A stretch of DNA of 64,000 bases from an uncultured Planctomycetia bacterium (GCA_964422295.1 CAYRAM010000001.1:135448-199447); one strand, 5' to 3'. Counted from the first letter of the stretch, positions 2,205-18,409 are shown. The notes: generated by a model not told the origin, from the sequence alone. A program made the numbers and translations.

Positions 2205-2402
2205 TAGGTCCTGCGACCCTGAGAGTTGAATTAGAGAAAACCAAACCCGAGTGATCCACTGCTAAAGGGGATCCTGCGACCTTGAAGCGACCTTGAAGCA
2301 ACCTTGGAGCGACCTTGGAGCGACCGAGGGGCAAGCGAGGAGCAAGCGAGGAGCGACCGGGGACGACGTTGGAGAGAGGTATTCGTGGAGAGAGGTATTC
2401 AT
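2205..2402. repeat. Cascade of short tandem duplications immediately upstream of and including the pilM-like start codon
   Basis: Four successive units each occur twice or more in tandem: gcgaccttgaa x2, gcgaccttggag x2, gcaagcgaggag x2, gagagaggtattcRtg x2. 'cctgcgaccYtga' also appears at 2208 and 2270. The last unit duplicates the SD-like sequence plus the GTG/ATG start. Confidence 0.6.
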
Positions 2403-4263
2403 GGCTGACTTCGAAGAAGTCTGGTGTCTCGATGGAGGAAAAAACTCCCTCAAGGCGATCAAGATCCAGCGGTCCGGCAACGGCGCTGAGATCGTCGCCG
2501 CCGAAAAAATCGAACACCCACTGGGCGCAGGCCCCGAGGCGACCGCAGCAGCGATCTCCAATTTGGCTTCTCAACATTCTCTCGCCGGGCCCTTGGCAGT
2601 TTCCCTACCGAGTCGTTCAGCACTGACAAGTTTCATCACCGTTCCTCCAGTGGACGGCAAGAAATTGGAGGAGCTGATCGGTTATGAGGCGCAGCAGAAT
2701 ATTCCGCTGCCGATGGAAGACGTCATCTGGGACAGCCACATTTGTGGCGATACCGACGACGGCGAGAAGGAGATTGGAATCTTTGCTGTCAGATCTGAAG
2801 AAGTTTCCGATCTTCTTCAAGATCTTGAGGCCGACAATTTGGAAATTGATGTACTCACACTCGGTAATGTCGGATTGCTGAATCTGATTCGCTTTGACCT
2901 CCGCCCCAAGCGTCCGATGGTCGCAATTGAAATCGGCGCACACCACACCGACCTGGTCGTGGTCAATGGGTCGCGTTACTGGTTCCGTTCGGTGCCCGTC
3001 TCCGGCAAGGATTTCACCCAGGCGCTTCAGGAACGTTTCAATTGCACTGAGGAGGAAGCGGAAAATCTCAAGGTGACCGCAGCCAAGTCTGACCATGCTG
3101 CCAAAATATTTGAAGTGCTGCAGCCGCTCTTGCGCGACCTTGTCAGTGAGATCAATCGTTCGATTGGCTATTACAAGTCCCGGGCTGGTGAGCTCAAGAT
3201 CGAAGATTTGTTCCTTTTCGGTGGCAGCGGCAAAGTGGTGGGGTTGCGAAAGTTCTTAGAAGACAACCTGCGGATTCGGGTGCAGATTTTCAAAAGTTTG
3301 CAACGCGTGCGGATTCGCCCCGAAGCGAATATTGTGCAGCAAGATCTGCAGGCGTTTTCATCTTGTATTGGAGCCGGACTACAGGCACTGGGGCTCGGTG
3401 AGATAGACCTCAATCTTTTGCCGCAGGAGCAACAGGAAGCCGCAGAATTCAAGAAGAAACAGAAGGTTGTTCTTGGAGCGACAGCCGCTCTCTATCTACT
3501 CATCGCATTCTTCGCAATCGTCTTCGGTGGCAAGATTGACGATGCCAATGCAGTCCTTCAGGAAGCCGGACTCGTCGACGAGTTGAAGGATAATGAAAAG
3601 TTGCTGGCGAAACTCCAGGAGGACAAGAGAGTAGTCCTTGAAAAGATGCAGAGCGACCTGGTTTCTCATGGAGCGGGTCGCCTCGTTCCCCGGGAGGTTC
3701 TCGAAATCATCGCCACAATCCCGAATGCCGAGCAAGTCTCCCAATCGATTCGCATGGAAGTGGAAGACGGTCCTGAAAAGGATAGCACCCGCGGTTCTGT
3801 TGAGGCGGAACAGGAATCACTCAACACCCAAAAGACTTGGCTCTCCGGGTTTGATGTTCGCAAGGTCAGAGTGACTGACTCGGGTACTGTTCTTGAAAAG
3901 GGAAGCAAAGTCGATTCGGGGATGACGGTCTTTGATGATCGTTACCAGGTGACTGTTCGTGGATTCCGATACGACCAAGGGGATGCCTCGACCAACGACC
4001 AGCAACTCAAATTGGTGGTCGTAGATCCGATTGAAGCCCGACTGACTGAAACATATGGTGCTCCTGAATATGGAGAGCGGGTCAGTCGAAATGTTGGAAC
4101 TGAAACGATGTTGATGTGGGCTCCCGACGATAATTTCAAGAGGGGTCGACAACGAGGACGCAATGACGAGGCATCTAGGGATCACGGGACTCCCCTCTAC
4201 CCCTGGACCATCTCTTGGGTCTATCCGCCGCTCCCGGTGGATCCCTCGGATGAAGAAGAATAG
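2401..4263 (+). CDS. pilM: Type IV pilus/T2SS-like assembly protein PilM fused to PilN-like segment, with an extra ~200-aa C-terminal domain
   Basis: Start taken at ATG 2401 (MADFEEVWCLDGG), which is the second copy of the duplicated SD+start unit. The ORF track extends to 2293 through the repeats. The N-terminal actin-like ATPase-fold pattern is typical of PilM (...IGAHHTDLVVVNG..., GKDFTQALQERFNCTEEEAENLK, SEINRSIGYYKS, LFLFGGSGKVVGL). A PilN-like 'LNLLPQEQQE' motif with one TM helix (VVLGATAALYLLIAFFAIVFGG) follows. Confidence 0.75.
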   Translation: MADFEEVWCLDGGKNSLKAIKIQRSGNGAEIVAAEKIEHPLGAGPEATAAAISNLASQHSLAGPLAVSLPSRSALTSFITVPPVDGKKLEELIGYEAQQNIPLPMEDVIWDSHICGDTDDGEKEIGIFAVRSEEVSDLLQDLEADNLEIDVLTLGNVGLLNLIRFDLRPKRPMVAIEIGAHHTDLVVVNGSRYWFRSVPVSGKDFTQALQERFNCTEEEAENLKVTAAKSDHAAKIFEVLQPLLRDLVSEINRSIGYYKSRAGELKIEDLFLFGGSGKVVGLRKFLEDNLRIRVQIFKSLQRVRIRPEANIVQQDLQAFSSCIGAGLQALGLGEIDLNLLPQEQQEAAEFKKKQKVVLGATAALYLLIAFFAIVFGGKIDDANAVLQEAGLVDELKDNEKLLAKLQEDKRVVLEKMQSDLVSHGAGRLVPREVLEIIATIPNAEQVSQSIRMEVEDGPEKDSTRGSVEAEQESLNTQKTWLSGFDVRKVRVTDSGTVLEKGSKVDSGMTVFDDRYQVTVRGFRYDQGDASTNDQQLKLVVVDPIEARLTETYGAPEYGERVSRNVGTETMLMWAPDDNFKRGRQRGRNDEASRDHGTPLYPWTISWVYPPLPVDPSDEEE

Positions 4264-4271
4264 GGGGCCGC

Positions 4272-5099
4272 ATGAGTGACAAGGTATTCTGGAGTTTGCT
4301 CGGTGCGGAAGTGGTCCTTTGGATCGTTCTGTTTGTCATCGTCGTAGTACCCAAAATGTCGGAATACGATTCTGTGAGTGCAAAGTTGAAGAGGCAGCAA
4401 AAAGACCTGAAGGAGTACTCACGAAAAGTCGACAGGGATTTACCCACCGAAGATATGGTGAAGGCTGAAGAGAAGTACCTCGAAAGTTGGAGCAAAGAGA
4501 TCGATCGCGCAGAAGAGTTTTACTCAAGCCGTGTGAGTCGCTTTGCTGAAGGAACTTCCAGCGATTTGAGTGGGTGGTCGACTCGTTATCGTGATGGCTT
4601 CGATCTTTTGGTGAAGCGCTACCGCTCTGAGGTGGGGCTCGATGCTGCTGCCGAGTTGCCATTTCTGGCCCAGGAAGATCTCGACGATGTCGACAAGATC
4701 GTCAATTATGAGCGTCGCTGGAAGGTGCAGAGTCACTTGGTGAACCTTGCACTGGAGAACCGAGGCTCAAATATTCTCGAGTTGACGATCGATCGGAAAA
4801 CGGCTCGTGCGAATCGTGGAGACGGCGATGGAGCGGCCCGATTCCCCGTATATCTAAAGTTGGAGATTCCTGGGAACCGTGTGGCGAATTTCGTCGACCA
4901 GATCATGAGGCACCCATTCATTGACTATTCCATCGGCCACTTGGCGGTCAGTAAGGATCGCGAGGAATTGCTCTTCGATGTCGTCAATGAAGCCAAGTCG
5001 GAGGAGGAAGAGTTGGGTGAGCCCAATGTCCTTCTGTTGCTTGAAATGGAAGTCCATGAAGGGACGATCGTGAGCTCTTCTGAAGAGGAACGGGGCTAA
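4272..5099 (+). CDS. PilO-like inner-membrane platform protein (N-terminal TM helix + coiled coil + C-terminal globular domain)
   Basis: Has an N-terminal TM helix (VVLWIVLFVIVVV) and a coiled-coil region rich in K/E/Q. Size and position directly after pilMN fit PilO. The call rests on architecture only, not on a specific motif. Confidence 0.5.
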   Translation: MSDKVFWSLLGAEVVLWIVLFVIVVVPKMSEYDSVSAKLKRQQKDLKEYSRKVDRDLPTEDMVKAEEKYLESWSKEIDRAEEFYSSRVSRFAEGTSSDLSGWSTRYRDGFDLLVKRYRSEVGLDAAAELPFLAQEDLDDVDKIVNYERRWKVQSHLVNLALENRGSNILELTIDRKTARANRGDGDGAARFPVYLKLEIPGNRVANFVDQIMRHPFIDYSIGHLAVSKDREELLFDVVNEAKSEEEELGEPNVLLLLEMEVHEGTIVSSSEEERG

Positions 5100-5103
5100 T
5101 CCA

Positions 5104-6210
5104 TTGCAAAATATCGATAAAATCACGATCGCTGTCGTTGCTTTGCTCCTCGTCGGAGGTTTTGGCTACCCCTTCCTGATGAGTGATCCCGGGAGTGAAT
5201 ACTCGAGCAAGATCAGCGAAGCCAATGAGGCCATCGAGGAAAATATGGCGTCCCAAGATCTGGGCGACCAAAGTGTTCCGGAAGTCCTCGGCAAAGTTCG
5301 TATGGCTTACGACATCTCCGGAGACGTGGCGATTCCTGAATGGTCTTTTTACCGCAAACCTGCCCGTCTCGATGTCAAGGAGCGGATCATCCAGGTTCCG
5401 CCGACCCTCGATCCCGCCTACCTTGCATCAGTCGCAGTGGTTCGGGATGCGGGGGGGCAACTCACCTATCATGAAATATCTGGTCGCCATGCGATTTACA
5501 CCAATGCGGAGATCACTTCCTGCGTCGTCGAAATGCGGGAAGGGGACGGGGAGTGGACGAAGCTGGATCAGGTAAACAGTTTCGCTTCTGGCCAGGCCTT
5601 TTCGATTCGGTCCGGTGCCTTGGAAGTTGGCCGCAGTTATCGCTATCGCATTTCTACCAAGGCCGCTGCTCTTCCTGGAAACATGTCCTTTCCCCGGGAT
5701 GGATCGAACTCTGTCTTGTCGGGAGAGACGGGACCCGTGTTGATGCCCGCTGATGAGGCTTGGAAGGTCAGTGGTGCCCAGGTGGGCCGCCTTGATAGTG
5801 CCGGCAACTTCATGCCCGGTCGTGCCACCATCCAGTACTCGCGTTGGGATTGGGAATCTTCCTCAGCGAAAAAATCCGCAAAGGTTGTGACCGAGCCGAA
5901 GGCGGGTGATCAGAGTGTCGAGCTGTTTGATACCGGTTTCCGATTGGAACGGATTCAGGATACGGCGGATGGTCGCGTTGTCGTTCTGCGGAACGAGAGC
6001 GGCAAAAGAGCCTATTTGAAAAACAATGATGACCCCCAGTCCCTGACCCCTCCGGGGTGGGACAACTTCGACAGTGATCCCGCTGAATCAACAGGGGAAG
6101 AAGACGAGGATGACGACTTGGGAGCGGTAGAGCCCGCCGACGAAGTCGAGCCGGTCAAGCCGAAGAGAACCCGCCCGAGCGGGGGGGGTCTCTTTGGAGG
6201 TGACGACTAA
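5104..6210 (+). CDS. Membrane-anchored periplasmic protein occupying the PilP position (FN3-like segment, acidic C-terminus)
   Basis: Has an N-terminal TM helix (ITIAVVALLLVGGFGY). 'GRSYRYRIST' resembles an FN3 strand motif. The C-terminus is Asp/Glu-rich and ends in a Gly-rich tail. It is co-directional with its neighbours and separated from them by only 4 nt and 2 nt. Confidence 0.5.
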   Translation: MQNIDKITIAVVALLLVGGFGYPFLMSDPGSEYSSKISEANEAIEENMASQDLGDQSVPEVLGKVRMAYDISGDVAIPEWSFYRKPARLDVKERIIQVPPTLDPAYLASVAVVRDAGGQLTYHEISGRHAIYTNAEITSCVVEMREGDGEWTKLDQVNSFASGQAFSIRSGALEVGRSYRYRISTKAAALPGNMSFPRDGSNSVLSGETGPVLMPADEAWKVSGAQVGRLDSAGNFMPGRATIQYSRWDWESSSAKKSAKVVTEPKAGDQSVELFDTGFRLERIQDTADGRVVVLRNESGKRAYLKNNDDPQSLTPPGWDNFDSDPAESTGEEDEDDDLGAVEPADEVEPVKPKRTRPSGGGLFGGDD

Positions 6211-6380
6211 GAGTGAGACAGGTGACGATGCCATGGGGCGGGTCACCCGTTCTGAAGGAATCTGCGAGGCAGACTTCGGAGCAAATTGGAAAGATTGAAA
6301 CTCGGCCACCTCTGGTGGCTGGAATAGCCAGCGGTCGCAAGGTGAAGCGACCGATTGACAACCAAAGCAAGGAGAGATCG

Positions 6381-8897
6381 ATGTCGATAAGCCTCCGGGA
6401 GCCCCAATTCAGAATCGTCATGGCGAGAAGTACCTTCTCAATCTTTGCCATGACCCTGTTGCTCCTCTGCGTTGCCGCCCAACCTGTCACAGCCCAGGAA
6501 GAGGGTGTGGATGGTCTGATCCGCGATGTCAGCTTGGAGAATCAGGCCCGGGCAGGTGCCGCTGTCCAAGCGGTGAATGCAGCGGAAAAACTGATCAACG
6601 AGTTACGCTATATCGAGGCGGAAGAGAAGTTGCAGGAGGCTGTTCGCCTCGATCCTGGCAACCAAAATGCCCGCGATCTTCTCGACACGGTACTGATGTT
6701 GCTCAGTGATCGCAGCGGAGATATCCGCGATCTTCAACGCCGAATGGTCGATGAGAAGAAGGTGCGACTGCAGCAGGACGTCTTTGAATTGGAGCGTCTG
6801 TATCTCGATGGCCGCAGGGCCATGGACGATGGCAGTTACGACAAGGCGGTCGCCATCTTCGATCAGATTCTTGAGCGGATTCGTTGGTTCCCCTTCGACT
6901 ATGATCTCAGCGATCAACAGAATCGGGCTCGCCAGTCGAAAGAAGAGTCGCTTCGCCTGCAAAATGAGAACGCCGCAGCCGAGAAGCGTGAGCGCGAGAT
7001 GCGTATTCTTGCAGAGGCAGAGTCGGAAATGGCACGGTCTGTATCCTTCATCCAAAACCGGATTGATGAGATTCTGCGCCAAGCGCGTCGCCTCTTTGCC
7101 GAAAGAGATTACGAGAGGGTGATCACTCTCTGTGACGAGGTTTTGCAACTCGATCCTTCAAGGAAGGATGTTCGTGCGCTTCGCCGTGAAGCCGCTGAAT
7201 TGCGCCATCTTTATGAGGTCCTCGACACCAGTTTGCAGACGCAACTTGAGTGGGATCGTACATTCCTGAGCCAGTTGGAATCGGAAATCCCTTACACGGA
7301 TATCTTTAATTTCCCTTCCCGTGAAGAATGGATGCGAATTACTCGCCAGGAACAGTCCCTCGAAGATCGTCTTCAAGCAGTGGAAAGCCAGCAGGAAAAG
7401 ACGATTCGCTCGCGTCTAAAGGTGCGTGTCGCCAGCGTTGAGTTTGAAGATGAGCCCTTTGAACAGGTGATCCAATTTCTCAGGGAACTCTCCGGGATCA
7501 ATTTCGTTCTCACCAAGGAAGCGTCCGAAGCTCTCGAAGGTGGCGATGGAACAGTGCGGCTGGCAGAAGTTACGGACCTGCCCCTCGAAAACGTATTGAA
7601 CCTGGTACTTCAAGGGAACGATCCACCATTTACCTACGTCATCCGGTCGGGAGCGGTTCTCATCGGCCCTTCCGATTCTGTTCGCAATGATGTGTTCCTG
7701 GAGTTTTACGAAGTTTCCGATATCACCAAAGACAAGCCTGATTTCCGTGCACCGCGTCTCGCTCTGCAGTCGAGCCAGGATGGGGATGACGGCGGAGCGG
7801 GGGGACTCTTCGACATCGGCGGGGAAGAAGACTCCCAGGAGACCACGCTGGATTCCGATATCCTCGTCGAGTTGGTCGTCAACGCCCTTTTCGGTGACGA
7901 AGGTGAACCGGACGGCGAGTCTGTGAGGATCCAAAGTGGTCGCCTTGTTGCGAACACCACTCTCGCCAACCACCGCAAGTTGATTCAATTGCTCAAAGCA
8001 TTGCGCAAGTCCACGGGGGTCATGGTGACGGTGGAGAGCCGCTTTATCGATCTCCAGGACAATTTCCTCGAATCGATCGGAGTCGATTACGGAAATCCGT
8101 TCAATTCCAATTTGCCGAACCCCATCAATGACATCGACGGTGCCGGTACCCAGATCGCAGCCGGCTTCGAAATCGTCGACGCCCAGGGAGAGATCGACGT
8201 GAGAGCAGCGGTTTACAACGCATTTTCGCTGCCTCTGGGGTCTTCCGTTTCACCCTTCAATCTCTCTGATACCGGTGGATTCGCGATTCAGTACAACGTT
8301 CTCGACAGTTACGCACTGGAAGCGATTCTGGAAGCCAATCAGAAGATGCAGCGCACCAAGAAGTTGGATGCGCCCCGTGTGACTGCCTTCAACACCCAGA
8401 TCTCCCACTCTCTCGTGGTTGATCAGAGTGCCTATATCGAGGATGCCGAAGTCAACCAAACCGGTGTGGTCCCCGTGATCAACCCTGTGATCGGGATTCT
8501 GAACTCAGGTTCGATTCTTCAGGTTCGCCCGACGGTCAGCCACGATCGCAAGTACGTGATTCTTGAGATCGAGCCGACCCTTGCAGTGCAGCTGCCATCC
8601 CGATTCAAGACTCTGACCCTCGGATTGACCAATCTGAATGTCGAGTTCCCCGTCCTTTCCGTAACAAACATCAAAACCACTGTGACGATTCCTGACGGCG
8701 GAACGGTTCTGGTGGGGGGACTCAAGCGCACCATCACCCAGGAATCCCGATCAGGAATTCCGGTGCTGTCGCGATTGCCGATTCTGGATCTCCTCGTCGG
8801 ACGCAAAGGGAATGCCCGCATGCAGTCGAATTTGTTCGTGTTGATCAGCGCAAAAATCACAGTTATCCGTGATGAAGAAGAGAAGCGGTTCAATTGA
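6381..8897 (+). CDS. Secretin (PilQ/GspD family) with N-terminal TPR/coiled-coil region and STN/N0-like domain - secretin paralogue 1
   Basis: The C-terminus carries the canonical secretin signature (...VTIPDGGTVLVGGLKRTITQESRSGIPVLSRLPILDLLVGRKGNARMQSNLFVLISAKI). Start chosen at ATG 6381, preceded by GGAGAG, which gives the signal-like 'MARSTFSIFAMTLLLLCVAAQPVTAQ'. The ORF track begins at 6213. Confidence 0.85.
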   Translation: MSISLREPQFRIVMARSTFSIFAMTLLLLCVAAQPVTAQEEGVDGLIRDVSLENQARAGAAVQAVNAAEKLINELRYIEAEEKLQEAVRLDPGNQNARDLLDTVLMLLSDRSGDIRDLQRRMVDEKKVRLQQDVFELERLYLDGRRAMDDGSYDKAVAIFDQILERIRWFPFDYDLSDQQNRARQSKEESLRLQNENAAAEKREREMRILAEAESEMARSVSFIQNRIDEILRQARRLFAERDYERVITLCDEVLQLDPSRKDVRALRREAAELRHLYEVLDTSLQTQLEWDRTFLSQLESEIPYTDIFNFPSREEWMRITRQEQSLEDRLQAVESQQEKTIRSRLKVRVASVEFEDEPFEQVIQFLRELSGINFVLTKEASEALEGGDGTVRLAEVTDLPLENVLNLVLQGNDPPFTYVIRSGAVLIGPSDSVRNDVFLEFYEVSDITKDKPDFRAPRLALQSSQDGDDGGAGGLFDIGGEEDSQETTLDSDILVELVVNALFGDEGEPDGESVRIQSGRLVANTTLANHRKLIQLLKALRKSTGVMVTVESRFIDLQDNFLESIGVDYGNPFNSNLPNPINDIDGAGTQIAAGFEIVDAQGEIDVRAAVYNAFSLPLGSSVSPFNLSDTGGFAIQYNVLDSYALEAILEANQKMQRTKKLDAPRVTAFNTQISHSLVVDQSAYIEDAEVNQTGVVPVINPVIGILNSGSILQVRPTVSHDRKYVILEIEPTLAVQLPSRFKTLTLGLTNLNVEFPVLSVTNIKTTVTIPDGGTVLVGGLKRTITQESRSGIPVLSRLPILDLLVGRKGNARMQSNLFVLISAKITVIRDEEEKRFN

Positions 8898-8931
8898 TCG
8901 AGGCAAACTCCTGGCTGATGTCAGGTAGGAA

Positions 8932-11790
8932 GTGCTCATGATTTCAGGATTTTCTTTCCCGACATGGACAAAGATCGTCCATGGTTTGGCTCTGGCGACG
9001 GTGCTGACGGCACCGACGACAGTGTCTGCCCAGTCGTTGGGAAGAGGTCCGTTGACGATGGAGGAAACCCGCTTCGTCAGTGAACTTTTAGGAACCTACG
9101 CCAGTCCTGATCTGGCCAAGGTTTGGATCGGGTCTCGCATCAAGACGGTAGATTCCGGGGGACGCGCAACTCTGGAGTTTGCCCTTGCTGACGCGATGCG
9201 GATTGAAGGAGATGTGGATGGGTATGAGGCGGAGATCCAGAGTCTCGCCAAGAAGTATCCCAATCATCCCCGTTCAAAAGGGGCACAGCTGGAATCAGTG
9301 CTGGCCGCACTCTTGCGCCTCTCCGATGCGAATACGGAGATGGTATTTGCCACCAGCCCGGCAGCACGTCAGCAAGCGCAGGATTTTCGCGATCGAATTT
9401 GGAACGATGAGATCGAAAAGTTGCTTGCGGAGAATATCCGCAGACTCAACGAGCAAGTCTCCCGGACCGAGTCCAAGGTCATGGATGCGAGTGATGCCGA
9501 GAGAAGAGATGAACTGGCGGGGACCCTGGCTGAGGAGACCCGCATCAGGGATCTTTGGGAGTTCAATCGCCTGAATGCCTACAAGGTGTACGCAGCGATG
9601 CTCCCCGATGGCGGTGAAGAGGCACAAGAGAAATTCGTCGCGCTTGCCAATTACGCCAACGAGTTCGTCAATTCCCGTTACGAGAACTTTGGTCGCAGAT
9701 ATGAAGCCCAACTGATCTACGGTCAGGCGCTCTCTTCTGCGGGTCAACCGGAGGAAGCGGCGATGGCTCTGGAGCTCCTCGTCGATATCGAGCCCAGTGC
9801 TGATCCACCCTACAGTGACGATGTGGTCTATTTCATCCGCCAGATGCGGATCGAGGCATTGACCGGATCCCTGCGCGCCTACAATCGATCGGGGCAACCT
9901 CAGGAGGGTCTCGACTTGATTGAATTCCTTTACGAGGACGATCAAGCCAGTTTTCCCTACCGCAGCACTCCCGAAGATCCGGAACTGGCGACGTTGGTCG
10001 CACTTTTGGATGTGGAGGAAGGAGTCACTCGGTTGGCCTCGGGGGATCGCCTTCGCGGATTTGAGTTGATTCGAGGTGTGATCGATCGATTCGATCAGCA
10101 GGAAGCATATTCTGCGGATCCTGCACAGGCGCGAGAAGTGGTCACCGGAATCCAGCGGGGCTTGAGTCGCCTGCAGGAATTGGGTGCGGGAAATCTGCCC
10201 GCTGAATTTTATGCTCGGGCGGCACTCGGTTTCCGCGACCGTGGGCTATCGGAAGAATCGATCGAAACCGCAAAATTGGCGCTGTACACCTCCGATGACA
10301 GCAAGGATGCAGACCGATGGCGCGCTGAGGCACTCTACGAGATCGGTGAATCGAGTGACGCACTCGGCCGCTCCATTGAAGCGGCATTGGCCTACCAAGA
10401 GTTGGCAGAAAATTATCCTGGTTCCCCAATGGTGGCGATGGCTTCTCAAAATTTCTTTGCCATCTCTGGTGACATGGCATCCTCTGATAACGGAGGCTCT
10501 GGAGAAGCGGGCCCATGGAACGAATTGCTCGTTGTCGCCGAAAAGTTGTTTGCCGACAATTCCAAGGGGTTGGGCAGTGAGCAGTTAAAACTGCAGCAAG
10601 CGGTCGAAGCTGAAGTGGAAGGGGATTACCGCAAGGCCCGGGAGCTCTTCCGCAGGATTTCCAGAAATTACAAGGATGGTGGCGTCGAAAAAACGGTTCC
10701 CTTCTTCTTCCGTGCTCGTGCTGGTGCTGCACGGTGTCTGTTCCGATCCAGCAGTGATGTCGAGCAGGCCCGCAAGGATGCCAGTGGGGAGATCCTCCCG
10801 CTCCTGGCTCAAGCCCGGGAAGCACGAAGTATCGGTGGGGAGTCGGTCCTTCGATACGAGTTGGCAAAGATGCATTGGGGAGACAAGGGCAAGGATCCTG
10901 ACGAAGCGATCAAAGCCTTGAATCCTGTTCTCAATGAGCTCAGTGGTGACAGCGTTTACCGGGAAGGGGCCCTTCTCTTCCTTCTCGAAGTCCTCTCTGC
11001 TGAAGGCAAGACGACCGAATCGGAAACGATTCTTGCGGAGCTTCGCAAGGCATGGCCCGGGAGCCAGACATTGGTGGCGGGAACCTATTATCTCATCGAG
11101 GCCTATGCGGCATCGACCGATCGGGCCGATCGTCGTCGTTCGGGAGAATTGGTGCTCGATTGGATCCGCCTCCCCGGATCCGGTTATGAAGAGTCTGGTC
11201 CAGGAGTGCGTCTCGGACTCGCCTCGATCTTGATCGATGGAGGTTTCTCGGCAGAAGCAGCCGGCATGCTCAGTAAGGCCCAAGAGGAAGCGATGGAGAG
11301 CGGTGAGCAGTCGTTGGTCATCGGTGTTTCCTACTTCCTTGCCAAAGCGGCCAACGCAGCGGGAAAGAACCGGGATGCCCTCGACAGCCTCAACGACATC
11401 ATTGAAAACTATGAAGATCTGACCTATGGGGGTTCCTACAATGAAGCCCCCTTTGTTCTGATTCAGAGGGCATCGGCAGAATTGGGTCTTTACCAGGTAG
11501 ATCGTTCAGCGAAGCGATTGAGCGCAATGTCCAAGGACCTGCAGGCAGCCATCGCAATCCTCGACCAAAGAAGAAAGTCACTCCTGTTCTCGGGTGGAAC
11601 CAATCCCGTCTTTGAGAAAGATTATTGGTCTGCCTGGTTGCAGTACATGGAAGTGCTGAAGGCGCAGGATCGTTGTGAGGACGTAGTGCAACTGATCCGC
11701 AGTCGCAGGCTGATGGCGGGGGATGGGAAAGACTTTGCCCCCAGAGATCTCCAGTCACGATTTGACCAACTGGAGAAGGATTGCAAATGA
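8932..11790 (+). CDS. Large secreted TPR-repeat protein (952 aa)
   Basis: Signal peptide (LALATVLTAPTTVSAQS) followed by helical-repeat composition throughout. An AGGTAGGAAG SD-like sequence lies upstream. Confidence 0.7.
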   Translation: MLMISGFSFPTWTKIVHGLALATVLTAPTTVSAQSLGRGPLTMEETRFVSELLGTYASPDLAKVWIGSRIKTVDSGGRATLEFALADAMRIEGDVDGYEAEIQSLAKKYPNHPRSKGAQLESVLAALLRLSDANTEMVFATSPAARQQAQDFRDRIWNDEIEKLLAENIRRLNEQVSRTESKVMDASDAERRDELAGTLAEETRIRDLWEFNRLNAYKVYAAMLPDGGEEAQEKFVALANYANEFVNSRYENFGRRYEAQLIYGQALSSAGQPEEAAMALELLVDIEPSADPPYSDDVVYFIRQMRIEALTGSLRAYNRSGQPQEGLDLIEFLYEDDQASFPYRSTPEDPELATLVALLDVEEGVTRLASGDRLRGFELIRGVIDRFDQQEAYSADPAQAREVVTGIQRGLSRLQELGAGNLPAEFYARAALGFRDRGLSEESIETAKLALYTSDDSKDADRWRAEALYEIGESSDALGRSIEAALAYQELAENYPGSPMVAMASQNFFAISGDMASSDNGGSGEAGPWNELLVVAEKLFADNSKGLGSEQLKLQQAVEAEVEGDYRKARELFRRISRNYKDGGVEKTVPFFFRARAGAARCLFRSSSDVEQARKDASGEILPLLAQAREARSIGGESVLRYELAKMHWGDKGKDPDEAIKALNPVLNELSGDSVYREGALLFLLEVLSAEGKTTESETILAELRKAWPGSQTLVAGTYYLIEAYAASTDRADRRRSGELVLDWIRLPGSGYEESGPGVRLGLASILIDGGFSAEAAGMLSKAQEEAMESGEQSLVIGVSYFLAKAANAAGKNRDALDSLNDIIENYEDLTYGGSYNEAPFVLIQRASAELGLYQVDRSAKRLSAMSKDLQAAIAILDQRRKSLLFSGGTNPVFEKDYWSAWLQYMEVLKAQDRCEDVVQLIRSRRLMAGDGKDFAPRDLQSRFDQLEKDCK

Positions 11791-12899
11791 TGGAGAGAAC
11801 ACCTGCAATGAATCTTGTCTCAACGAAGCTTTTGAAGCGGATCAAGTGGGCCGTGGGATCGATATTGTTCCCATTGTTGATGGTCATGAGTTCAAATGCG
11901 CTTTTTGCCGATCAAATCATCGTGACCGGTGGGCGTAATTACGAAGATGTCACCATCACTGGTGCCACGTACGAGCAGGTGCAGTTCAAGCTTCCGGGAG
12001 TCAGCACCTCTCAAAAGGTGGACGCCGACAAAGTTCTTCAATTGGTGTTTTCAAGGGAGTCATCGAGTCTCGCCAGGGGCAGGGGTGCTTTTGAAAAGGG
12101 AGATTGGGAGACCGCTTCCAATAGTTTCCAATCTGCAAAAAGCATGGGAGATGCACTCAAGAAATCGAGTGCCATGTACATGCACGGCTTGGCGCTGTTG
12201 CGATGGGGTGACACCGATGCGTCCAAATACGCCGCAGCAGTCGATGTGCTGAATGCTTATCTTACCGAATTTGAAGGCAAGAAGGATTTCTATGTTCCCC
12301 ACGCACGCATGGCGCTTTCGGAAGCGCATCGGAAAGCGGGGAATTACTCTGAGGCGGAAAGTGCACTTGCAAATCTTGCATCCGGGAACCTGGGCCGCCG
12401 TTGGGTATTGGGTGCACGCCTGGGCAAAGCCCAGAGTCTGCTCGCCCAAGAGAAGTGGCCCCAGAGCAGAGAAGAATTCTCATCGGTTTCTGGTGACTCG
12501 AATGCGACCACTGATCAGATCTGTCAGGCGTGGATCGGGTATGCCAGTGCGCAGCAAGGTCAAAAGCAGTGGCGGCAGGCTGCAGAGACAGTACGACAAC
12601 AGATTCTGGAAACCCGCGACAAGAACATCTTGGCCAATACTGCGGCGCGTGCCCACGGTTGGCTGGTTTGGGGACGATCGACGGAAGAACAGGCCGGGGG
12701 AGACTCTGCTGAGATGCAGTGGGCGATGATTCGTTATCTGCGAGCAGCAATCATGGCCTCCGGAGCAAATGGCGAGGTACTCGCAGAAGCTCTTTATCGC
12801 GCCAGGGAGTTGGCCAAGAAACAGGGAGATTCTGATAGAGCTGAGAGTTTGACCCAAAGATTGAAGCAGGTAGCTCCAGACTCCCGCTGGAACAAATAA
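11781..12899 (+). CDS. Secreted TPR-repeat protein (372 aa)
   Basis: Signal-peptide-like N-terminus (ILFPLLMVMSSNALFADQ). TPR-like repeats are visible (AAVDVLNAYLTEFEGKKDFYVPHARMALSEAHRKAGNY...). The ORF overlaps the upstream one by 10 nt. Confidence 0.65.
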   Translation: MQMMERTPAMNLVSTKLLKRIKWAVGSILFPLLMVMSSNALFADQIIVTGGRNYEDVTITGATYEQVQFKLPGVSTSQKVDADKVLQLVFSRESSSLARGRGAFEKGDWETASNSFQSAKSMGDALKKSSAMYMHGLALLRWGDTDASKYAAAVDVLNAYLTEFEGKKDFYVPHARMALSEAHRKAGNYSEAESALANLASGNLGRRWVLGARLGKAQSLLAQEKWPQSREEFSSVSGDSNATTDQICQAWIGYASAQQGQKQWRQAAETVRQQILETRDKNILANTAARAHGWLVWGRSTEEQAGGDSAEMQWAMIRYLRAAIMASGANGEVLAEALYRARELAKKQGDSDRAESLTQRLKQVAPDSRWNK

Positions 12900-12917
12900 T
12901 CGAATCATCAAAATTGG

Positions 12918-13709
12918 ATGGTGAGAGAGGAAAGAAAAATGAAGTTGACAGGTTTCATGAGCAAGAATCGGGGGAAGTCAATTTCCCGAATTCTGCTCCT
13001 GACCATCTTTGCAATGACGCTGGCTTTGGGGTCGAGCGTCATCGCTCATGCACAGCCTGAAGAGGCTGCTGCAGAGGAAAAGGAAACGATTTCTGTCCTC
13101 GATAATATTCGCGCAGCGGGGGCGGTCGGTGTGATTCTGATTCTGCTTTCGGGTGCGGGGTTTGCTTTGACCCTGATGCACGGTATGCAGTTGCGACGGG
13201 ATGTCCTGGTGCCGCCCGATTTGCTGGATCATGTCGAGTCGCTCTTTGAGACCGAGGATTACGAGGGGGCTTTGGATGCCCTGGAGCAACAGCCCAGCTT
13301 CCTTTCCAGTGTTCTCGCTGCAGGCCTGCCGAAGATCGATCGACCCTACGACGATATCGAAGATGCCATGGAGGAGGCCGGAGAGATCGAATCTTCCGAA
13401 TTGCATCGGAAGATCAGTTACATCTCGTTGATTGCGGCGATTTCTCCCATGTTGGGGTTGTTGGGTACAGTGATGGGAATGGTTACGGCGTTCAACGTGA
13501 TCGCTACCGAAAAGACATCACCGAAGCCGGCGGATTTGGCAGAAGGAATTTCGGAAGCGTTGATGACCACCATGATGGGATTGATCGTTGCGATCCCAAT
13601 GACGGTTTTCTACTTCATATTGAAAACGATCATCGATGGTGCATCTGTGGAGGTGAGCAGTATCGCTTCTGAGTTGATGTCTCGTTTTGATGATGGTGTC
13701 AACGCCTAA
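12918..13709 (+). CDS. exbB: MotA/TolQ/ExbB-family proton channel
   Basis: Carries the family signature 'SPMLGLLGTVMGMVTAFNVIA' and three TM segments. Confidence 0.85.
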   Translation: MVREERKMKLTGFMSKNRGKSISRILLLTIFAMTLALGSSVIAHAQPEEAAAEEKETISVLDNIRAAGAVGVILILLSGAGFALTLMHGMQLRRDVLVPPDLLDHVESLFETEDYEGALDALEQQPSFLSSVLAAGLPKIDRPYDDIEDAMEEAGEIESSELHRKISYISLIAAISPMLGLLGTVMGMVTAFNVIATEKTSPKPADLAEGISEALMTTMMGLIVAIPMTVFYFILKTIIDGASVEVSSIASELMSRFDDGVNA

Positions 13710-13726
13710 GGCTGGACGGAGCAAGA

Positions 13727-14233
13727 ATGGCACGGAAACAGAAGAAAATACTGAAAAAGAAAGGAGTCGACATGGACATGACGCCCATGATCGACATCGT
13801 TTTCTTGCTCATTGTTTTCTTCATGGTGGTCACAGAACTCACGGTGCAGCAAGCAGAGGTGATTTTGCCGATCGCATCTGAAGCGACCGTTGAGGAGCCT
13901 CAACCCGGTAGCCGAATCTTGTTCATCAACGTCTCCTTTGACAAAGAAGGCAATGAAGTTGTGCAGTTGATGAATAGCTCTCCGCTGACTCCGGAGAGGT
14001 TGCGATTGGAATTGAAACTGGAGGCGGAGGCGTACGGACTTTGGGAAGATAATCCTGTGAACCCCGATCCAAAGATGCGCCTCTCGAAACTCGAGGTGAC
14101 AATTCGTTGTGACCAGGGTGCCGAGAGTGGAAACATTCACAAGATTTTTGCCGCTTGCCAATATGCACGGATTTACCAGGTGCGATGTGCGGCGATTTCA
14201 GAAAGATTTGAGGACCCTTACAACCCTGAGTAG
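13727..14233 (+). CDS. exbD: ExbD/TolR-family protein 1
   Basis: 'MDMTPMIDIVFLLIVFFMV' is the canonical ExbD/TolR N-terminal TM motif. Confidence 0.85.
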   Translation: MARKQKKILKKKGVDMDMTPMIDIVFLLIVFFMVVTELTVQQAEVILPIASEATVEEPQPGSRILFINVSFDKEGNEVVQLMNSSPLTPERLRLELKLEAEAYGLWEDNPVNPDPKMRLSKLEVTIRCDQGAESGNIHKIFAACQYARIYQVRCAAISERFEDPYNPE

Positions 14234-14297
14234 CGGGGTTCGTTGCAGTGAATCCCCCGGAGGATGTCCGTGGTGGAGGAGAAAGAAGGGAGGAAGC

Positions 14298-14810
14298 ATG
14301 GCGAGAAGAAAGATCATCGATCCGGACCGCAACAAGGCAGATGCGGATATGACGCCTATGATTGACGTCGTGTTCCTTCTGTTGATCTTCTTCATGTTGG
14401 CAACCAAGTTCAAAATGCCCGAAGGAACGCTGAGGTCCTATCTCCCTAAGAATCGGGGAGAATCCAACAGCCGTCCGATGTTGTCAGAAAATTGTCGGGT
14501 CACCCTGCTTTATCAGGGGGATCAAGTGGTGGCCTATGCTGATCAGGCGCAGGTCCCAACCAGTGATGTCCTGGAGTCTGATTTCGAGTTGCACACCGGC
14601 GTTCCTGGTCCCGATCTCGATTACATTGAACAGCACATCCTTCGCCGCAGGGATACCTACGTAGCCCTGGGTGATACTGCGACATTGCCTGTTGTCATCG
14701 ATTTTGCAGAAAAAGTTCCGTACAAGTACGTGATCGACGTTTTGAACATTTGCGCCAAGTTAGACATTGAGAACATAGCCTTTGCCCAACCGGAAACTCC
14801 GATGGACTGA
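14298..14810 (+). CDS. exbD: ExbD/TolR-family protein 2
   Basis: 'ADMTPMIDVVFLLLIFFML' motif. Start set at ATG 14298 after GGAGGA. The ORF track's 14109 start would overlap exbD-1. Confidence 0.85.
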   Translation: MARRKIIDPDRNKADADMTPMIDVVFLLLIFFMLATKFKMPEGTLRSYLPKNRGESNSRPMLSENCRVTLLYQGDQVVAYADQAQVPTSDVLESDFELHTGVPGPDLDYIEQHILRRRDTYVALGDTATLPVVIDFAEKVPYKYVIDVLNICAKLDIENIAFAQPETPMD

Positions 14811-14977
14811 GGTGACGTTTCGGAAGTTCGATTGCTTTCGACGTTGTGAAGTTTGCAATTTGCCGATCTCGTCCATTTACCCTTGGAGGGGTGGACGAAA
14901 GAAGAAAGGGTGCTCTCGTGATTGAGACCCATAATCCCCAGAACGGCGCTGTCCCTGCCGTCTCTCGTGGAACCTCC

Positions 14978-17590
14978 ATGCTTCCGGGCAACATCGTTTG
15001 TCTTGGAATCATCGTGCTCCTGTTTTCCGGCTGTAGTGGATCTGCGGATCCGCGTCCAAGCGAGGTGGCATTCGAGCCTCCGCGCAAGGAAGCGAGCTCG
15101 GAAGGACAGGATCTTTTCGCCCGTACCCAGGATCCCGACGACCGCGGTGTCCAAGCCGTTGCCGACGAGGTCAATCTCGCCAGGCAGGCGAATCGAGCTA
15201 CTGCGAATTGGCTCCTGGAACAGGCAAACAAGCTGTTCGCAGAAGCGAATTACGCTGCTGCCGAGCGGGCTTACCGTCGGGCACTCGATGCCGATCCCAC
15301 CCTTCAGGAGGCGAAGGAAAAGTTGTCCCGCTGCCTGATGTTCCTCGGTCGCAGGGACGGTGAGATCCGAACGATTCTTCAGCAGTTCGGTGAAGAGGTT
15401 CGGGTGCTGGAGGAGCAACGTCTCAGTGAGGCCAATCGATTCCTCTCTGATGGCAAGGCTGCTCTCGACGCCGGGAAGATCGACGAGGCTCTCGGTCTGC
15501 TCCAACGCGCAAGAGAGCGACTGATCTGGTTCGATTACGGAGTCGATGTCACCGACATGCAGGCTGAAGCTCAGAGTCTTTATGACACGGCGCGCGGACT
15601 CAAGATCGACATGGACAAGCGGTCGAGAGAGCAGAGAGAAGCCCTCGCCATCGAGGAAGCGGAACGTCTGACGAGGGAAGTTGAAAAGCGTCGCTTGGAG
15701 CGAATCGCAACTCTCATGGATCGCATCGAAGATGCGATGGTTCGTGAGGACTTCCGAGAGGCGATCCAATTGTCGAGGACCATCTTGGGCATCGACCCCG
15801 AGAATCTTGCAGCACGCCGTCTTCAGGATCGTGCCAGCGAGTTTCTTCGTTCCTTCCGCTATGTCAGTTATCTTGGGCGTGAAAAAGAGCAAACCACGCG
15901 GGTCTGGGAAGATTTGGAAGCGAGTGCGATCCCGTACGAGGACCCATTCCGCTTCCCCGAAGACAAGAATTTCTGGCAGGGAGAAGTGCAGAAGCGCCTC
16001 GATGAGCTCTCCAGTTCCAATTTGGAAGAGTCCCCCGAAATCCGCAAAATTCGCCGCACTTTGGCGACCGGTACCACCTCATTTGACTTCCCCGATGCCA
16101 ACTTGGGTGAAGTTGTGGAGTTCCTGCGATCGGTAAGTGATCTCAACATCACCATTGATCCTGAAATCGATGCTGCGGATGTTCCAGTCAACCTGTCATT
16201 GGAAGGCGTCAAACTCGGCGAAGCGCTCGACCTGATCATGAAGGCTACCGGCAAAGCCTTCACATTCAGGGAGAATATCCTCTTCATTACAGAACCGGAA
16301 AATGCCTTTGGCGATCTGATCTTCGATATTTACAACGTGACCGACATTCTCAACAAGATCAGGGATTTCCCTGGTCCGGCGATTCGAGTATCGAGCAATG
16401 ACGAGGGAGAGGACGGAGGTGGTGACAACCCCTTCGACTTCGGTGGCTTCGATGAGGAAGAAGACGCAGAACTGACTCCCGACGATCTCGTGGAGTTGAT
16501 CCAGGAGTCCACCGGTGGTGCAGATGCCTGGGATGAATCCAATTCGACCATCAGTGGTCACAAGGGCCAGATTCTGATCAATGCCACCCGTGAATTGCAC
16601 CTGTCGATTCATGATTTCCTCACCAATCTTCGCGCTAACAGTGACGTCTTTGTCGTCGTGGAAGCTCGATTTATCGACATGGTCGATGATTTCCTTGAGG
16701 ACATCGGGGTCGATTCGAGAAACTTGGGGCAACCTCCCGGGCAAGGTTTTGGTACCGCATACGGGAGTTTGAACAGTTCTGGAACCGGGGGGACCGACAT
16801 CGGTTTCAATAACCTCGGTGATCCGGCAGATCCTCTGCTGGTCATGGGTCAAAATCGAACCGCAGGCCGTATGCAGAATATCCTCGACGGCTTTGTTGGG
16901 GGGGCTGCTGGAAGTCGCCTGAACTCCACACTGCGAGGACTGACGATGCAGGTCACCTGGCTTGACCCCTTCCAGATCAACGCGATCATTCGTGCCAGTC
17001 AGGAAGAGCGTGCTGCGAGGATCGTTACTGCACCCAAAGTGACCGCGTCCAATGGCCAGCGTGTCCATGTCTCTGTGATCACACAGCGCTCCTATGTTCA
17101 GGACTACGAGTTGGTTTCTGGTGGTACAGGACTAGTCGTATCCGAGGTTGCTGACCCGGTGATCGACACCTTCCAGGACGGCGTTGTCCTCGATGTTCGC
17201 CCAGTGATTTCAGCGGATCGGCGTTACATCACTGTGGATGTTCGTCCGACTCTTGCAAGTTTGATCAACGGAGTCATTTCGACGGTAACCATCAGTCTGG
17301 GAACACTTTCGAGTGCGGCGAGTCTCGTAGAAATCGATCTGCCGGAGATTTCGTTGCAGCAGGCGTTTACTTCGGTGACGGTTCCCGATGGCGGTACTGT
17401 TCTATTGGGTGGATTCCGTTCGCTCAATGAACTGAATTACGAATCGACGGTGCCGATTTTGGGGAATATTCCGATTCTCAAAAACGCTTTCCGTCGCAAA
17501 GCGAACCTTAATGAAAAGCGCAGTCTTTACATTCTTGTAACTGCAAAGATTGTCGATCTGCGTGCTGAAGAGCAGAAGTTGTTCAACTAA
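14978..17590 (+). CDS. Secretin (PilQ/GspD family) lipoprotein with N-terminal TPR/coiled-coil region and STN/N0-like domain - secretin paralogue 2
   Basis: The C-terminus carries the secretin signature (VTVPDGGTVLLGGFRSLNELNYESTVPILGNIPILKNAFRRKANLNEKRSLYILVTAKI). Start at ATG 14978 gives the lipobox signal 'MLPGNIVCLGIIVLLFSGCSG'. Its architecture parallels secretin 1 (ARERLIWFDYGVDVTD vs ILERIRWFPFDYDLSD). Confidence 0.85.
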   Translation: MLPGNIVCLGIIVLLFSGCSGSADPRPSEVAFEPPRKEASSEGQDLFARTQDPDDRGVQAVADEVNLARQANRATANWLLEQANKLFAEANYAAAERAYRRALDADPTLQEAKEKLSRCLMFLGRRDGEIRTILQQFGEEVRVLEEQRLSEANRFLSDGKAALDAGKIDEALGLLQRARERLIWFDYGVDVTDMQAEAQSLYDTARGLKIDMDKRSREQREALAIEEAERLTREVEKRRLERIATLMDRIEDAMVREDFREAIQLSRTILGIDPENLAARRLQDRASEFLRSFRYVSYLGREKEQTTRVWEDLEASAIPYEDPFRFPEDKNFWQGEVQKRLDELSSSNLEESPEIRKIRRTLATGTTSFDFPDANLGEVVEFLRSVSDLNITIDPEIDAADVPVNLSLEGVKLGEALDLIMKATGKAFTFRENILFITEPENAFGDLIFDIYNVTDILNKIRDFPGPAIRVSSNDEGEDGGGDNPFDFGGFDEEEDAELTPDDLVELIQESTGGADAWDESNSTISGHKGQILINATRELHLSIHDFLTNLRANSDVFVVVEARFIDMVDDFLEDIGVDSRNLGQPPGQGFGTAYGSLNSSGTGGTDIGFNNLGDPADPLLVMGQNRTAGRMQNILDGFVGGAAGSRLNSTLRGLTMQVTWLDPFQINAIIRASQEERAARIVTAPKVTASNGQRVHVSVITQRSYVQDYELVSGGTGLVVSEVADPVIDTFQDGVVLDVRPVISADRRYITVDVRPTLASLINGVISTVTISLGTLSSAASLVEIDLPEISLQQAFTSVTVPDGGTVLLGGFRSLNELNYESTVPILGNIPILKNAFRRKANLNEKRSLYILVTAKIVDLRAEEQKLFN

Positions 17591-17616
17591 GCCTGATACT
17601 CAGGGATGGTTATTGG

Positions 17617-17669
17617 GGGTCGCCACCGGGTGGAAATCTCGGTGGCGACCCTCGTGCCTTGAACGAGGG
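17617..17669 (+). terminator. Two overlapping, mutually exclusive GC-rich hairpins downstream of secretin 2; no U-tract
   Basis: Hairpin A is GGGTCGCCACC(17617-27) paired with GGTGGCGACCC(17641-51). Hairpin B is CCCTCG(17649-54) paired with CGAGGG(17664-69). The two share 17649-51. Confidence 0.45.
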
Positions 17670-17677
17670 TGAGTGAG

Positions 17678-18409
17678 ATGAGTCAAATCCAGGCCATATT
17701 TTTTGATGTCGATGGGACCTTGTTCTCGACGGTCGATTTTGCTGCAAGGGCAAGGCGGGCCAGTGTACGAGCGATGATTCAGGCTGGTCTCGACATCGAG
17801 GAGGATCTCCTGATGGAGGAACTCCACGAGGTGGTCAAAGAGTTTTCATCCAATTACGAGGGACACTTCGACAAACTTTTATTGCGTTTGCCCCGCAGAT
17901 CTTTGAAGGGATTGAACCCGGCTGTCATCATCTCTGCAGGCATCGTCGCTTATCACGATACAAAAACTCGCTTTCTGGAACCTTTTGAAGATGCCAGTGA
18001 GGTCTTGCGACGCCTTGCTAAAACTGGGCTTCGTCTGGGAATCATCACAGAGGGACTTGAAGTCAAGCAGTCAGAAAAATTGATTCGCTTGCGACTGCTT
18101 GAGTACTTTGACCACAAGGCGATCTTTATTTCGCATCAGGTTGGGATTTCGAAGCCTAATCCAAAGCTCTATCAGAGGGCATGCACGGATCTCAACCTCC
18201 GTCCATCCGAATGCCTGTACGTGGGCGATAACCCCATGCTCGATATCGATCCAGCCAATGAGATCGGAATGGTCACGGTGCTGGTGAGCCGAGAGGACAG
18301 ATTTCGATCAGTCAGTGGCAATACACAACCGGACCACGTCATTCAGAATTTCTGGGATTTGTCGGAAATCCTGCGTGAACAGGGTGTGAGTGTCCCGGAG
18401 GTACTGTGA
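17678..18409 (+). CDS. HAD-superfamily hydrolase (phosphatase)
   Basis: Has the 'IFFDVDGTLF' DxDGT motif I and 'YVGDNPMLDI' motif IV. The ATG at 17678 with a GAGGG SD is preferred over the GTG at 17669. Confidence 0.8.
   Translation: MSQIQAIFFDVDGTLFSTVDFAARARRASVRAMIQAGLDIEEDLLMEELHEVVKEFSSNYEGHFDKLLLRLPRRSLKGLNPAVIISAGIVAYHDTKTRFLEPFEDASEVLRRLAKTGLRLGIITEGLEVKQSEKLIRLRLLEYFDHKAIFISHQVGISKPNPKLYQRACTDLNLRPSECLYVGDNPMLDIDPANEIGMVTVLVSREDRFRSVSGNTQPDHVIQNFWDLSEILREQGVSVPEVL

Follow-up and report, generated by a model that had tools for sequence, protein, structure and literature searches.

We analysed a stretch of DNA of 64,000 nucleotides (nt) from an uncultured Planctomycetia bacterium (GCA_964422295.1 CAYRAM010000001.1:135448-199447), here called the window, which carries near its left end a locus combining genes of a pilus-type inner membrane platform, two secretin genes and the genes of an ExbB-ExbD-ExbD motor. 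Between positions 2293 and 17590, ORF calling on the window gave ten co-directional open reading frames (ORFs), all on the + strand. Their domains were searched with Pfam and NCBIfam, and their topology was assigned from hydropathy and inspection of the N termini. An earlier, sequence-only reading of this DNA had described the same genes, and every ORF that it listed is present on the + strand. It had, however, counted eleven genes and let the locus start at 2205; there are ten, and the first ORF opens at 2293, with a likely ATG at 2401. The genes are the following:

2293..4263, +, PilM-PilN fusion (likely start 2401; PF11104, TIGR01175 and topology)
4272..5099, +, PilO/Amuc_1100-like bitopic protein, g2 (Foldseek search with a low-confidence model)
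5104..6210, +, bitopic periplasmic protein with a fibronectin type III (FN3) domain, g3 (profile search and hydropathy)
6213..8897, +, secretin 1, Sec1 (likely start 6420; PF00263 and TPR matches)
8932..11790, +, large periplasmic TPR protein, TPR952 (TPR_6, TPR_14 and TPR_19; signal peptide)
11781..12899, +, periplasmic TPR protein, TPR372 (TPR_19, E=6e-7; signal peptide)
12918..13709, +, ExbB/TolQ-type proton-channel stator subunit (likely start 12939; PF01618, E=1e-29)
13727..14233, +, ExbD/TolR paralogue 1 (PF02472, E=5e-16; transmembrane (TM) aspartate, MTPMID)
14298..14810, +, ExbD/TolR paralogue 2 (ORF opens at 14109, likely start 14298; PF02472, E=7e-17; TM aspartate)
14846..17590, +, secretin 2, Sec2 (likely start 14978; PF00263, lipobox and AlphaFold2 (AF2) model)

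The intergenic gaps are 2-64 nt, an operon-like spacing, and five further co-directional, tightly spaced genes follow secretin 2 in a run that ends at 25618. A 10-nt overlap of the two TPR genes, claimed earlier, exists if the second of them starts at the TTG at 11781 and is lost with any other start. Pfam recovered PilM, both secretins, the TPR repeats, ExbB and both ExbD, in agreement with the domains proposed before. A promoter and terminator scan of the region was uninformative, and an Rfam scan found only two tRNAs. The nearest relatives of the secretin and PilM genes of the window lie in metagenome-assembled genomes of Planctomycetota. As judged from the sequences compared, the PilMN-PilO-like platform, the two secretins and ExbB-ExbD-ExbD are a conserved operon. 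We count its gene content and gene order, the domain folds and topology of its products, and the conservation of the catalytic residues of the motor as observations.

The first gene encodes a cytoplasmic actin-like PilM domain, the component with this role in the alignment subcomplex of type IV pili (T4P), recognised by PF11104 (PilM_2; E=4e-27, 95.5 bits against a cut-off of 27) and by TIGR01175 (134.1 bits, just over the cut-off of 133). The PilM domain is followed by a single TM helix (amino acids (aa) 392-410) and a 245-aa periplasmic part formed by a coiled coil and a C-terminal domain, and the protein is therefore best described as a PilM-PilN-type fusion, its PilN part being assigned from topology, with no Pfam match in the periplasmic portion. 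A database protein of 620 aa is 100% identical to the fusion. The third product, g3, which had been described simply as a TM periplasmic protein, is one, and it also carries an FN3 domain: a TM helix (aa 7-25) precedes a beta-sandwich FN3 domain and an acidic tail. As a single sequence g3 found nothing in the PDB, and a profile of nine orthologues matched titin and other FN3 domains there (best E=6.5e-11). Its position in the cluster corresponds to that of PilP/GspC or Amuc_1099 in related clusters. No similarity was detected between g3 and the verrucomicrobial protein at the Amuc_1099 position, and the slot of the T4P lipoprotein PilP is occupied here by this TM-anchored FN3 protein.

The product between them, g2, consists of an N-terminal TM helix, a coiled coil and an alpha-beta-beta-alpha-beta-beta domain. 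It had no Pfam or NCBIfam match, in a Pfam copy that appears to be without an Amuc_1100 model (a verrucomicrobial protein with a precomputed PF28028 match scored nothing with it), and a sequence search against the PDB gave nothing useful. A single-sequence AF2 model of low confidence (pLDDT, the model's own per-residue confidence, of 51) was compared with the PDB by Foldseek. The top 11 matches were Myxococcus PilO (3jc8) and the Amuc_1100 crystal structures 6lad, 6laf and 6kny, with PilO of P. aeruginosa next in the list; for the three Amuc_1100 structures this pLDDT-51 model gave probabilities of 0.97-1.0 and TM-scores of 0.5-0.58. In an hhalign comparison with a verrucomicrobial protein of the Amuc_1100 family the probability was 84%, for an alignment confined to 91 columns at the N terminus. 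The name 'PilO-like' used in the sequence-only reading thus agrees with the top fold matches, PilO and Amuc_1100, for which the low-confidence model is the sole support. In the JGI copy of the contig, a marine metagenome contig of Planctomycetota (3300002231, KVRMV2_100036802; L071, 13411-14240; loci are numbered with the letter L), g2 is called as two ORFs of 171 and 105 aa. In the window it is one ORF of 275 aa, the split in L071 being a frameshift or an assembly difference.

Both secretins have a C-terminal secretin domain that places them in the secretin superfamily (PF00263, cut-off 27.5 bits; E=3.2e-20 and 72.9 bits for Sec1, E=9.8e-26 and 90.8 bits for Sec2), and with 29% identity over 824 columns they are paralogues. 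In Sec1 a signal peptide is followed by a helical TPR region, an N0/STN-like domain and the secretin domain; Sec2 starts with a lipoprotein signal (lipobox LFSGC) and continues with a helical TPR region, N0, a ring-building domain and the secretin domain. The TPR N terminus proposed earlier for both, and the lipoprotein nature of Sec2, are thus supported by the Pfam matches and the lipobox. In an AF2 model of Sec2 built with 18 sequences, the TPR region had a pLDDT of ~90 and N0 of ~75-80. The N0 domain superposed on that of PilQ (4ar0) with a probability of 1.0, 27% identity and 2.4 A over 81 columns, and Foldseek matched the model to the InvG and PilQ secretins, to PilQ N0 and to the N0-N1 domains of GspD and MxiD, so that the periplasmic N0 and ring-building N domains of secretins are both present in it. 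The STN domain, also claimed for both proteins, stays below the Pfam threshold here (Sec1, E=2e-4, 21 bits against a cut-off of 28; Sec2, E=0.13). Pfam does call it on homologues 55-66% identical, and the fold of Sec2 N0 agrees. What does not stand is the use of STN as a sign of TonB-type coupling, an idea that we rejected: the domain is the ordinary N0 domain of secretins and is no evidence for such a link. Further TPR-secretin paralogues, 35-40% identical to Sec2, were seen outside this locus context in L036 (9926-12712), L038, L040 and L042; that in L036 adjoins a DUF4953 Met-zincin and a Ser/Thr kinase.

The genes between the secretins encode two TPR proteins and the motor. TPR952 and TPR372, of 952 and 372 aa, have the TPR repeats expected from the earlier description, and signal peptides; TPR952 matches a YbgF-type TPR model (E=8.5e-13), TPR372 carries a small N-terminal beta domain, and neither has a sequence relative in the PDB. 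ExbB (PF01618, MotA_ExbB, 103 bits) has three TM helices and a signal-peptide-like N-terminal extension. Its best NCBIfam match is TolQ, at E=8e-22 and below threshold (78 bits against a cut-off of 221). The motifs in TM2 and TM3 are at least 90% conserved among 41 orthologues. The two ExbD proteins score 59 and 62 bits with PF02472, and the TM aspartate is present in every sequence inspected, out of 76 ExbD ORFs. An ExbB channel and an ExbD TM aspartate, as in a TonB-ExbB-ExbD system, are thus in place, with scores that do not reach the equivalog models, and the Pfam matches and conserved motor residues confirm the identification of one ExbB and two ExbD. From its residue conservation the motor is, as far as the alignments tell, under purifying selection. 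Three ExbD paralogues, not two, follow ExbB in L029, L030 and L037.

No prepilin motif was found in the six frames of the whole 64 kb; Pfam detected no PilB, PilC, PilD or TonB in window ORFs of at least 150 aa, and no TonB_C or TonB-dependent receptor domain in the locus or in those ORFs; TolA, TolB and Pal are absent from the 64-kb window. The source contig was followed for a further 10 kb upstream of the window, and no ATPase, platform protein, pilin, peptidase, TonB, TolA, TolB or Pal was found there either. A complete T4P or type II secretion system, with PilB/GspE, PilC/GspF, a peptidase and pilins, is therefore not encoded within the window and the 10 kb upstream. The earlier statement that the locus has no ATPase, platform protein, peptidase, pilin or TonB gene thus held across the window searches, and no canonical T4P set lies just outside, in the upstream 10 kb. 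This absence does not justify the earlier conclusion that the machine would use the motor 'rather than a dedicated cytoplasmic ATPase'. In Pseudomonas and Neisseria the pilMNOPQ operons are normally unlinked from pilB, pilC, pilD and the pilin genes, and the PilM domain is kept here, so a locus without an ATPase gene does not imply an ATPase-free machine; the complex may well use a PilB-type ATPase and pilin-like subunits whose genes lie elsewhere. The resemblance to PilMNOPQ with the TPR pilotin PilF/Tgl of type IVa pili extends to the PilM fold, bitopic proteins of putative PilN/PilO type, a secretin with N0, secretin-associated TPR proteins and a locus devoid of ATPase and pilin genes, which is usual for pilMNOPQ operons. 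In contrast to that system, PilM and PilN are fused here, an FN3 protein takes the place of the PilP lipoprotein, TPR regions are fused to the secretins, and two secretins flank an ExbB-ExbD-ExbD motor.

The linkage of motor and secretins was followed in a scan, by secretin alignment, of one genome per species, which gave 61 loci, the large majority titled Planctomycetota; the window proteins were mapped onto these loci with tblastn, phmmer and jackhmmer, and the tally was taken over the 29 secretin-anchored species genomes in which both secretins were visible. In 21 of these 29, the stretch between the secretins carries ExbB and two or three ExbD genes. Both TPR genes are there as well in all but one of the 21 (20/21): TPR952, an accessory member of the cassette, is gone in L063. 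The cassette keeps its place between the secretins down to 37-45% Sec2 identity (L037, L045, L063). Correlations of identity between Sec2 and the other proteins were not used, because Sec1/Sec2 cross-hits confound them. Approached from the motor, the picture was the same. Among the 120 closest ExbB homologues, most of them without a name, every named one is from Planctomycetota, and all 120 appear to be planctomycete. For ExbB relatives at 43-49% identity, the five sampled contexts (one on a 7.87-Mb contig) all show the same locus, in the order PilO-like, FN3, Sec1, TPR, TPR, ExbB, ExbD, ExbD, Sec2. A search of the full library with ExbB returned clusters made up almost entirely of metagenome proteins and gave no verrucomicrobial placement. 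The synteny in 21/29 genomes and the 5/5 ExbB contexts therefore argue that the motor is dedicated to this locus; it looks like a vertically inherited part of it in a large planctomycete clade. The proposal that ExbB-ExbD-ExbD is a conserved partner of the TPR-secretin and PilMN genes, and not a chance neighbour, is in this respect supported.

Simpler relatives of the locus exist. In Brocadiia-type loci only the fusion, a PilO-like gene and one secretin are present, and in Phycisphaerae-type loci no secretin adjoins the PilM-PilN gene. In the Phycisphaerae-type loci L066, L074 and L075 the fusion is followed by two uncharacterised genes of ~450 and 650-720 aa; the uncalled gap after them resembles, by eye, a 23S rRNA gene in L075, and similar gaps occur in L066 and L074.

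The nearest functional precedent is found in Akkermansia, where the loci MUL1 and MUL2 are both reported to be required for transport of mucin across the outer membrane. MUL2 is the pilus-like/secretin cluster Amuc_1098-1102, and a supplementary annotation table gives, in the MUL1 region, Amuc_0546 as ExbD/TolR and Amuc_0548 as MotA/TolQ/ExbB, adjoined by Amuc_0543 (mul1B) and Amuc_0544 (mul1A). At the level of sequence, the Amuc_1101 family model NF045709 matched PilM-PilN (E=9e-57, 193.3 bits against a cut-off of 650) and the Amuc_1098 family model NF042912 matched Sec2 over aa 260-904 (E=3e-32, 111.4 bits against a cut-off of 750). By these scores the planctomycete PilM-PilN and Sec2 are related to Amuc_1101 and Amuc_1098, not equivalogs of them. 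The MUL2 order Amuc_1101, 1100, 1099, 1098 corresponds to that of the first four genes here, the second of which has an Amuc_1100-like fold in its low-confidence model. The two loci differ in that an Amuc_1102-type pilin-like gene, present in a verrucomicrobial relative (whose gene order is Amuc_1102, PilM, Amuc_1100, unnamed gene), is missing here, and in that the FN3 protein is unlike the protein at the Amuc_1099 position. MUL1 has, like our locus, an annotated ExbB and an annotated ExbD, and it is reported to be genetically tied to the same transport process as MUL2. Unlike MUL1 and MUL2, the planctomycete genes form a single operon, which also encodes two paralogous secretins and two large TPR proteins. 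By this analogy the locus looks like a MUL2-like and a MUL1-like module brought together in an operon, along with a duplication of the secretin. The mucin-transport finding itself is said to come from Davey et al. 2023. A family-4 uracil-DNA glycosylase (UDG) gene flanks the planctomycete locus, and Amuc_0551, near the ExbB of MUL1, bears an old annotation name that denotes a family-4 UDG; a UDG beside both loci may be left over from an ancestral locus that held both sets of genes.

These results are compatible with the idea that the locus encodes a T4P-like trans-envelope complex of the type found in the Planctomycetes-Verrucomicrobia-Chlamydiae superphylum, which moves polymers and in which ExbB-ExbD-ExbD energises or gates the secretins; we give this reading a probability of about 0.5. 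The PilM-PilN fusion, the PilO/Amuc_1100-like protein and the FN3 protein would form the inner membrane platform, the FN3 protein probably touching the N0 domains of the secretins as a connector. In the outer membrane there would be two paralogous secretin channels with periplasmic TPR arms, Sec2 as a lipoprotein and Sec1 as a soluble-targeted protein. ExbB-ExbD-ExbD would act as a stator driven by the proton-motive force (PMF) that gates or energises the secretin channel, with TPR952 and TPR372 as its likely soluble periplasmic adaptors, and large polymers, probably glycans, would be moved across the outer membrane into the periplasm. In its working principle, although in nothing else, this resembles GldLM of the Bacteroidota type IX secretion system, which belongs to the MotAB/ExbBD superfamily of PMF stators and powers a large outer membrane channel without a dedicated cytoplasmic ATPase; the GldLM proteins are unrelated in sequence, their translocon is SprA and not a secretin, and the system exports.

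Several observations weigh against this reading. First, eight of the 29 two-secretin genomes have no ExbB-ExbD-ExbD between the secretins (L033, L039, L038, L041 and L053-L056), and in these the motor is either not obligatory or sited elsewhere. In L033 and L039 (53-55% Sec2 identity) the secretins are directly adjacent, L038 and L041 have neither TPR nor motor genes, and L053-L056 retain just a gene of the 372-aa type. TPR372 is thus the most persistent gene between the secretins, staying in the absence of the motor in L053, L054 and L055 according to the locus tally and in L056 according to the gene map, and the motor is, on this distribution, an accessory layer and not a universal one. Second, the UDG gene, genes for a haloacid dehalogenase (HAD) phosphatase and for glycosyltransferases of families 2 (GT2) and 4 (GT4), and rplM are equally syntenic, although UDG, HAD and rplM are apparently unrelated to the machine; at short evolutionary distance gene order by itself thus carries little weight, and it is no proof of function. 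Third, a TonB/TolA-like force transducer was not found in the 64-kb window, and neither a credible ORF nor a prepilin motif that could stand for an Amuc_1102-type pilin-like gene is present in the spacer at 1309-2292. Finally, the g2 model is of low confidence, the likeness to MUL1 is one of composition, compared at the level of annotation, and functional claims, namely motor-secretin coupling, transport direction and substrate, are ones that we infer from the genes alone.

Some of these points would be explained if two independent systems were merely co-located, that is, an alignment-secretin operon of T4P or type II secretion type, with ATPase, platform protein, peptidase and pilins elsewhere, and an uncoupled Tol-like envelope-maintenance module made of TolQ, TolR, TolR and CpoB-like TPR proteins. 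The best NCBIfam matches of the motor genes are indeed TolQ/TolR, TPR952 matches the YbgF/CpoB TPR model, the pilMNOPQ genes are generally separate from pilBCD and pilA, UDG, HAD and rplM are just as syntenic with no obvious link, and eight two-secretin loci do without the cassette. The likeness to TonB and Tol-Pal systems covers ExbB/TolQ and ExbD/TolR with the TM aspartate and channel motifs, together with the CpoB-like TPR segment. It stops there: of a Tol-Pal system just the TolQ/TolR-like proteins and the YbgF-like segment are found, TolA, TolB and Pal are missing from the locus and its surroundings, the 64 kb contain no TonB or TonB-dependent receptor either, and the outer membrane partner here would be a secretin. 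Moreover, an essential Tol system is not expected to vanish from lineages as close as L033 and L039. The cassette, where present, lies always exactly between the secretins, co-directional and with short gaps, down to an ExbB divergence of 43%, and in Akkermansia an ExbB/ExbD locus and a homologous pilus-like locus are reported to be required for one transport phenotype. Two uncoupled systems therefore seem to us rather unlikely, and we retain the motor-secretin complex as the preferred reading.

Directly after Sec2 the co-directional run continues with one further feature:

17669..25618, +, downstream co-directional syntenic module of five genes (Pfam and NCBIfam)

These five genes, which follow each other with 4-nt overlaps, encode in order a HAD phosphatase (TIGR02253 family), an ArnC-like polyprenyl-phosphate GT2, a GT4, a protein with ~10 TM helices and a multi-TM spermidine-synthase-like protein. 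The fourth product (921 aa) has a C-terminal TPR region, its homologue in L073 has a weak PMT_2 match, and it may be a GT-C/TMTC-like protein. At Sec2 identities as low as 37% the module still accompanies the locus in synteny. Possibly it serves periplasmic glycosylation linked to the machine, its membership of the locus being uncertain. Its presence bears on the direction of transport, since the TPR-secretins could instead release a glycoconjugate or a glycosylated fibre made with the downstream glycosyltransferases, ExbB-ExbD-ExbD supplying energy or aiding assembly; in this they would resemble exporters of the TPR-barrel type known from synthase-dependent polysaccharide systems, or the outlet of a pilus or holdfast. 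The deep synteny of the HAD, GT2, GT4 and multi-TM/TPR genes speaks for such a role, secretins are classically export channels, and planctomycete fibres emerge from crateriform structures. However, a processive synthase, Wzx/Wzy and a Wza-type component are all missing, the 64 kb contain no fibre subunit or pilin, and the ArnC-like GT2 and the weak PMT_2 match suggest glycosylation of periplasmic protein or lipid over polymer synthesis. MUL, the nearest relative that has been studied, is reported to import. Export is, in our judgement, improbable.

A third possibility had been suggested by a parallel drawn in the sequence-only reading: a machine for gliding or surface motility like Agl-Glt of Myxococcus, with TolQ and two TolR driving TPR-rich envelope proteins. 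That parallel is limited to the 1:2 ratio of ExbB to ExbD genes and the plentiful TPR proteins. Two or three ExbD per ExbB are common in ordinary Ton systems, Pfam and NCBIfam found no Glt-type domains in the locus proteins and hence no counterpart of GltA-K, the envelope partners of AglRQS, and Glt complexes use beta-barrel proteins and the TonB-like GltG/J, not secretins. Gliding is not known from these bacteria. We rejected this candidate, whose match goes no further than the motor gene ratio and which is extremely improbable.

Upstream of the locus the UDG gene (496-1308) occupies the position that it has in many planctomycete relatives. The ~1 kb between it and the PilM fusion (1309-2400) has no credible ORF and no Rfam match; conservation is confined to ~1340-1490, in the close relatives L048 and L049, and the best promoter-like site (1377-1404, 10/12 matches) falls inside that segment. 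Elsewhere the window encodes:

36799-39117, -, 772-aa ankyrin-repeat protein
47939-49027, +, DprA
49012-51489, -, 825-aa multihaem-cytochrome-like protein with CarboxypepD_reg domains
51689-55321, +, 1210-aa Ser/Thr kinase

With respect to direction, the sequence-only reading had left uptake and secretion side by side. Uptake has a precedent in Akkermansia MUL1/MUL2. Planctomycetes take dextran of 10-40 kDa into the periplasm in a manner sensitive to carbonyl cyanide m-chlorophenylhydrazone (CCCP). Sulfatase genes lie inside the locus in two distant relatives (L068, 15037-16443; L070, 11871-13841), in one after secretin 2 and in the other between ExbD and secretin 2, which hints at a link with the use of sulfated glycans. 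Because of the Akkermansia precedent, the CCCP-sensitive dextran uptake and the sulfatase insertions, we favour import. In its most far-reaching form the proposal would be that the locus is the macromolecule-uptake machine of planctomycetes, with twin secretins tied to the cytoplasmic membrane by a PilMN/PilO-like/FN3 platform and opened or driven by ExbB-ExbD-ExbD through TPR adaptors, and the basis of both the crateriform 'press-stud' complexes and the CCCP-sensitive import of polysaccharides; taken as a whole, this is a speculative and unlikely extension. The literature on crateriform structures and secretin yielded no gene assignment, and we found no paper linking Planctomycetes, secretin and ExbD, or Planctomycetes, TolQ and secretin. 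The working principle is precedented in Akkermansia, and the locus is undescribed in the Planctomycetes literature that we found.

Planctomycetes and Verrucomicrobia import large polysaccharides, in what is called 'selfish' uptake, without the SusC/D machinery of Bacteroidota, and the locus described here offers a candidate outer membrane conduit for this process in planctomycetes. If the far-reaching form were true, this would be the first secretin serving as a PMF-energised import gate, and confirmation of the coupling would add secretin channels to the partners of ExbBD-type motors and import to the roles of secretins. In Akkermansia two separate loci are tied to mucin import; their apparent union in one operon in many Planctomycetota is independent genomic evidence that the two act jointly, and it provides a short and concrete list of genes for work in tractable planctomycetes.

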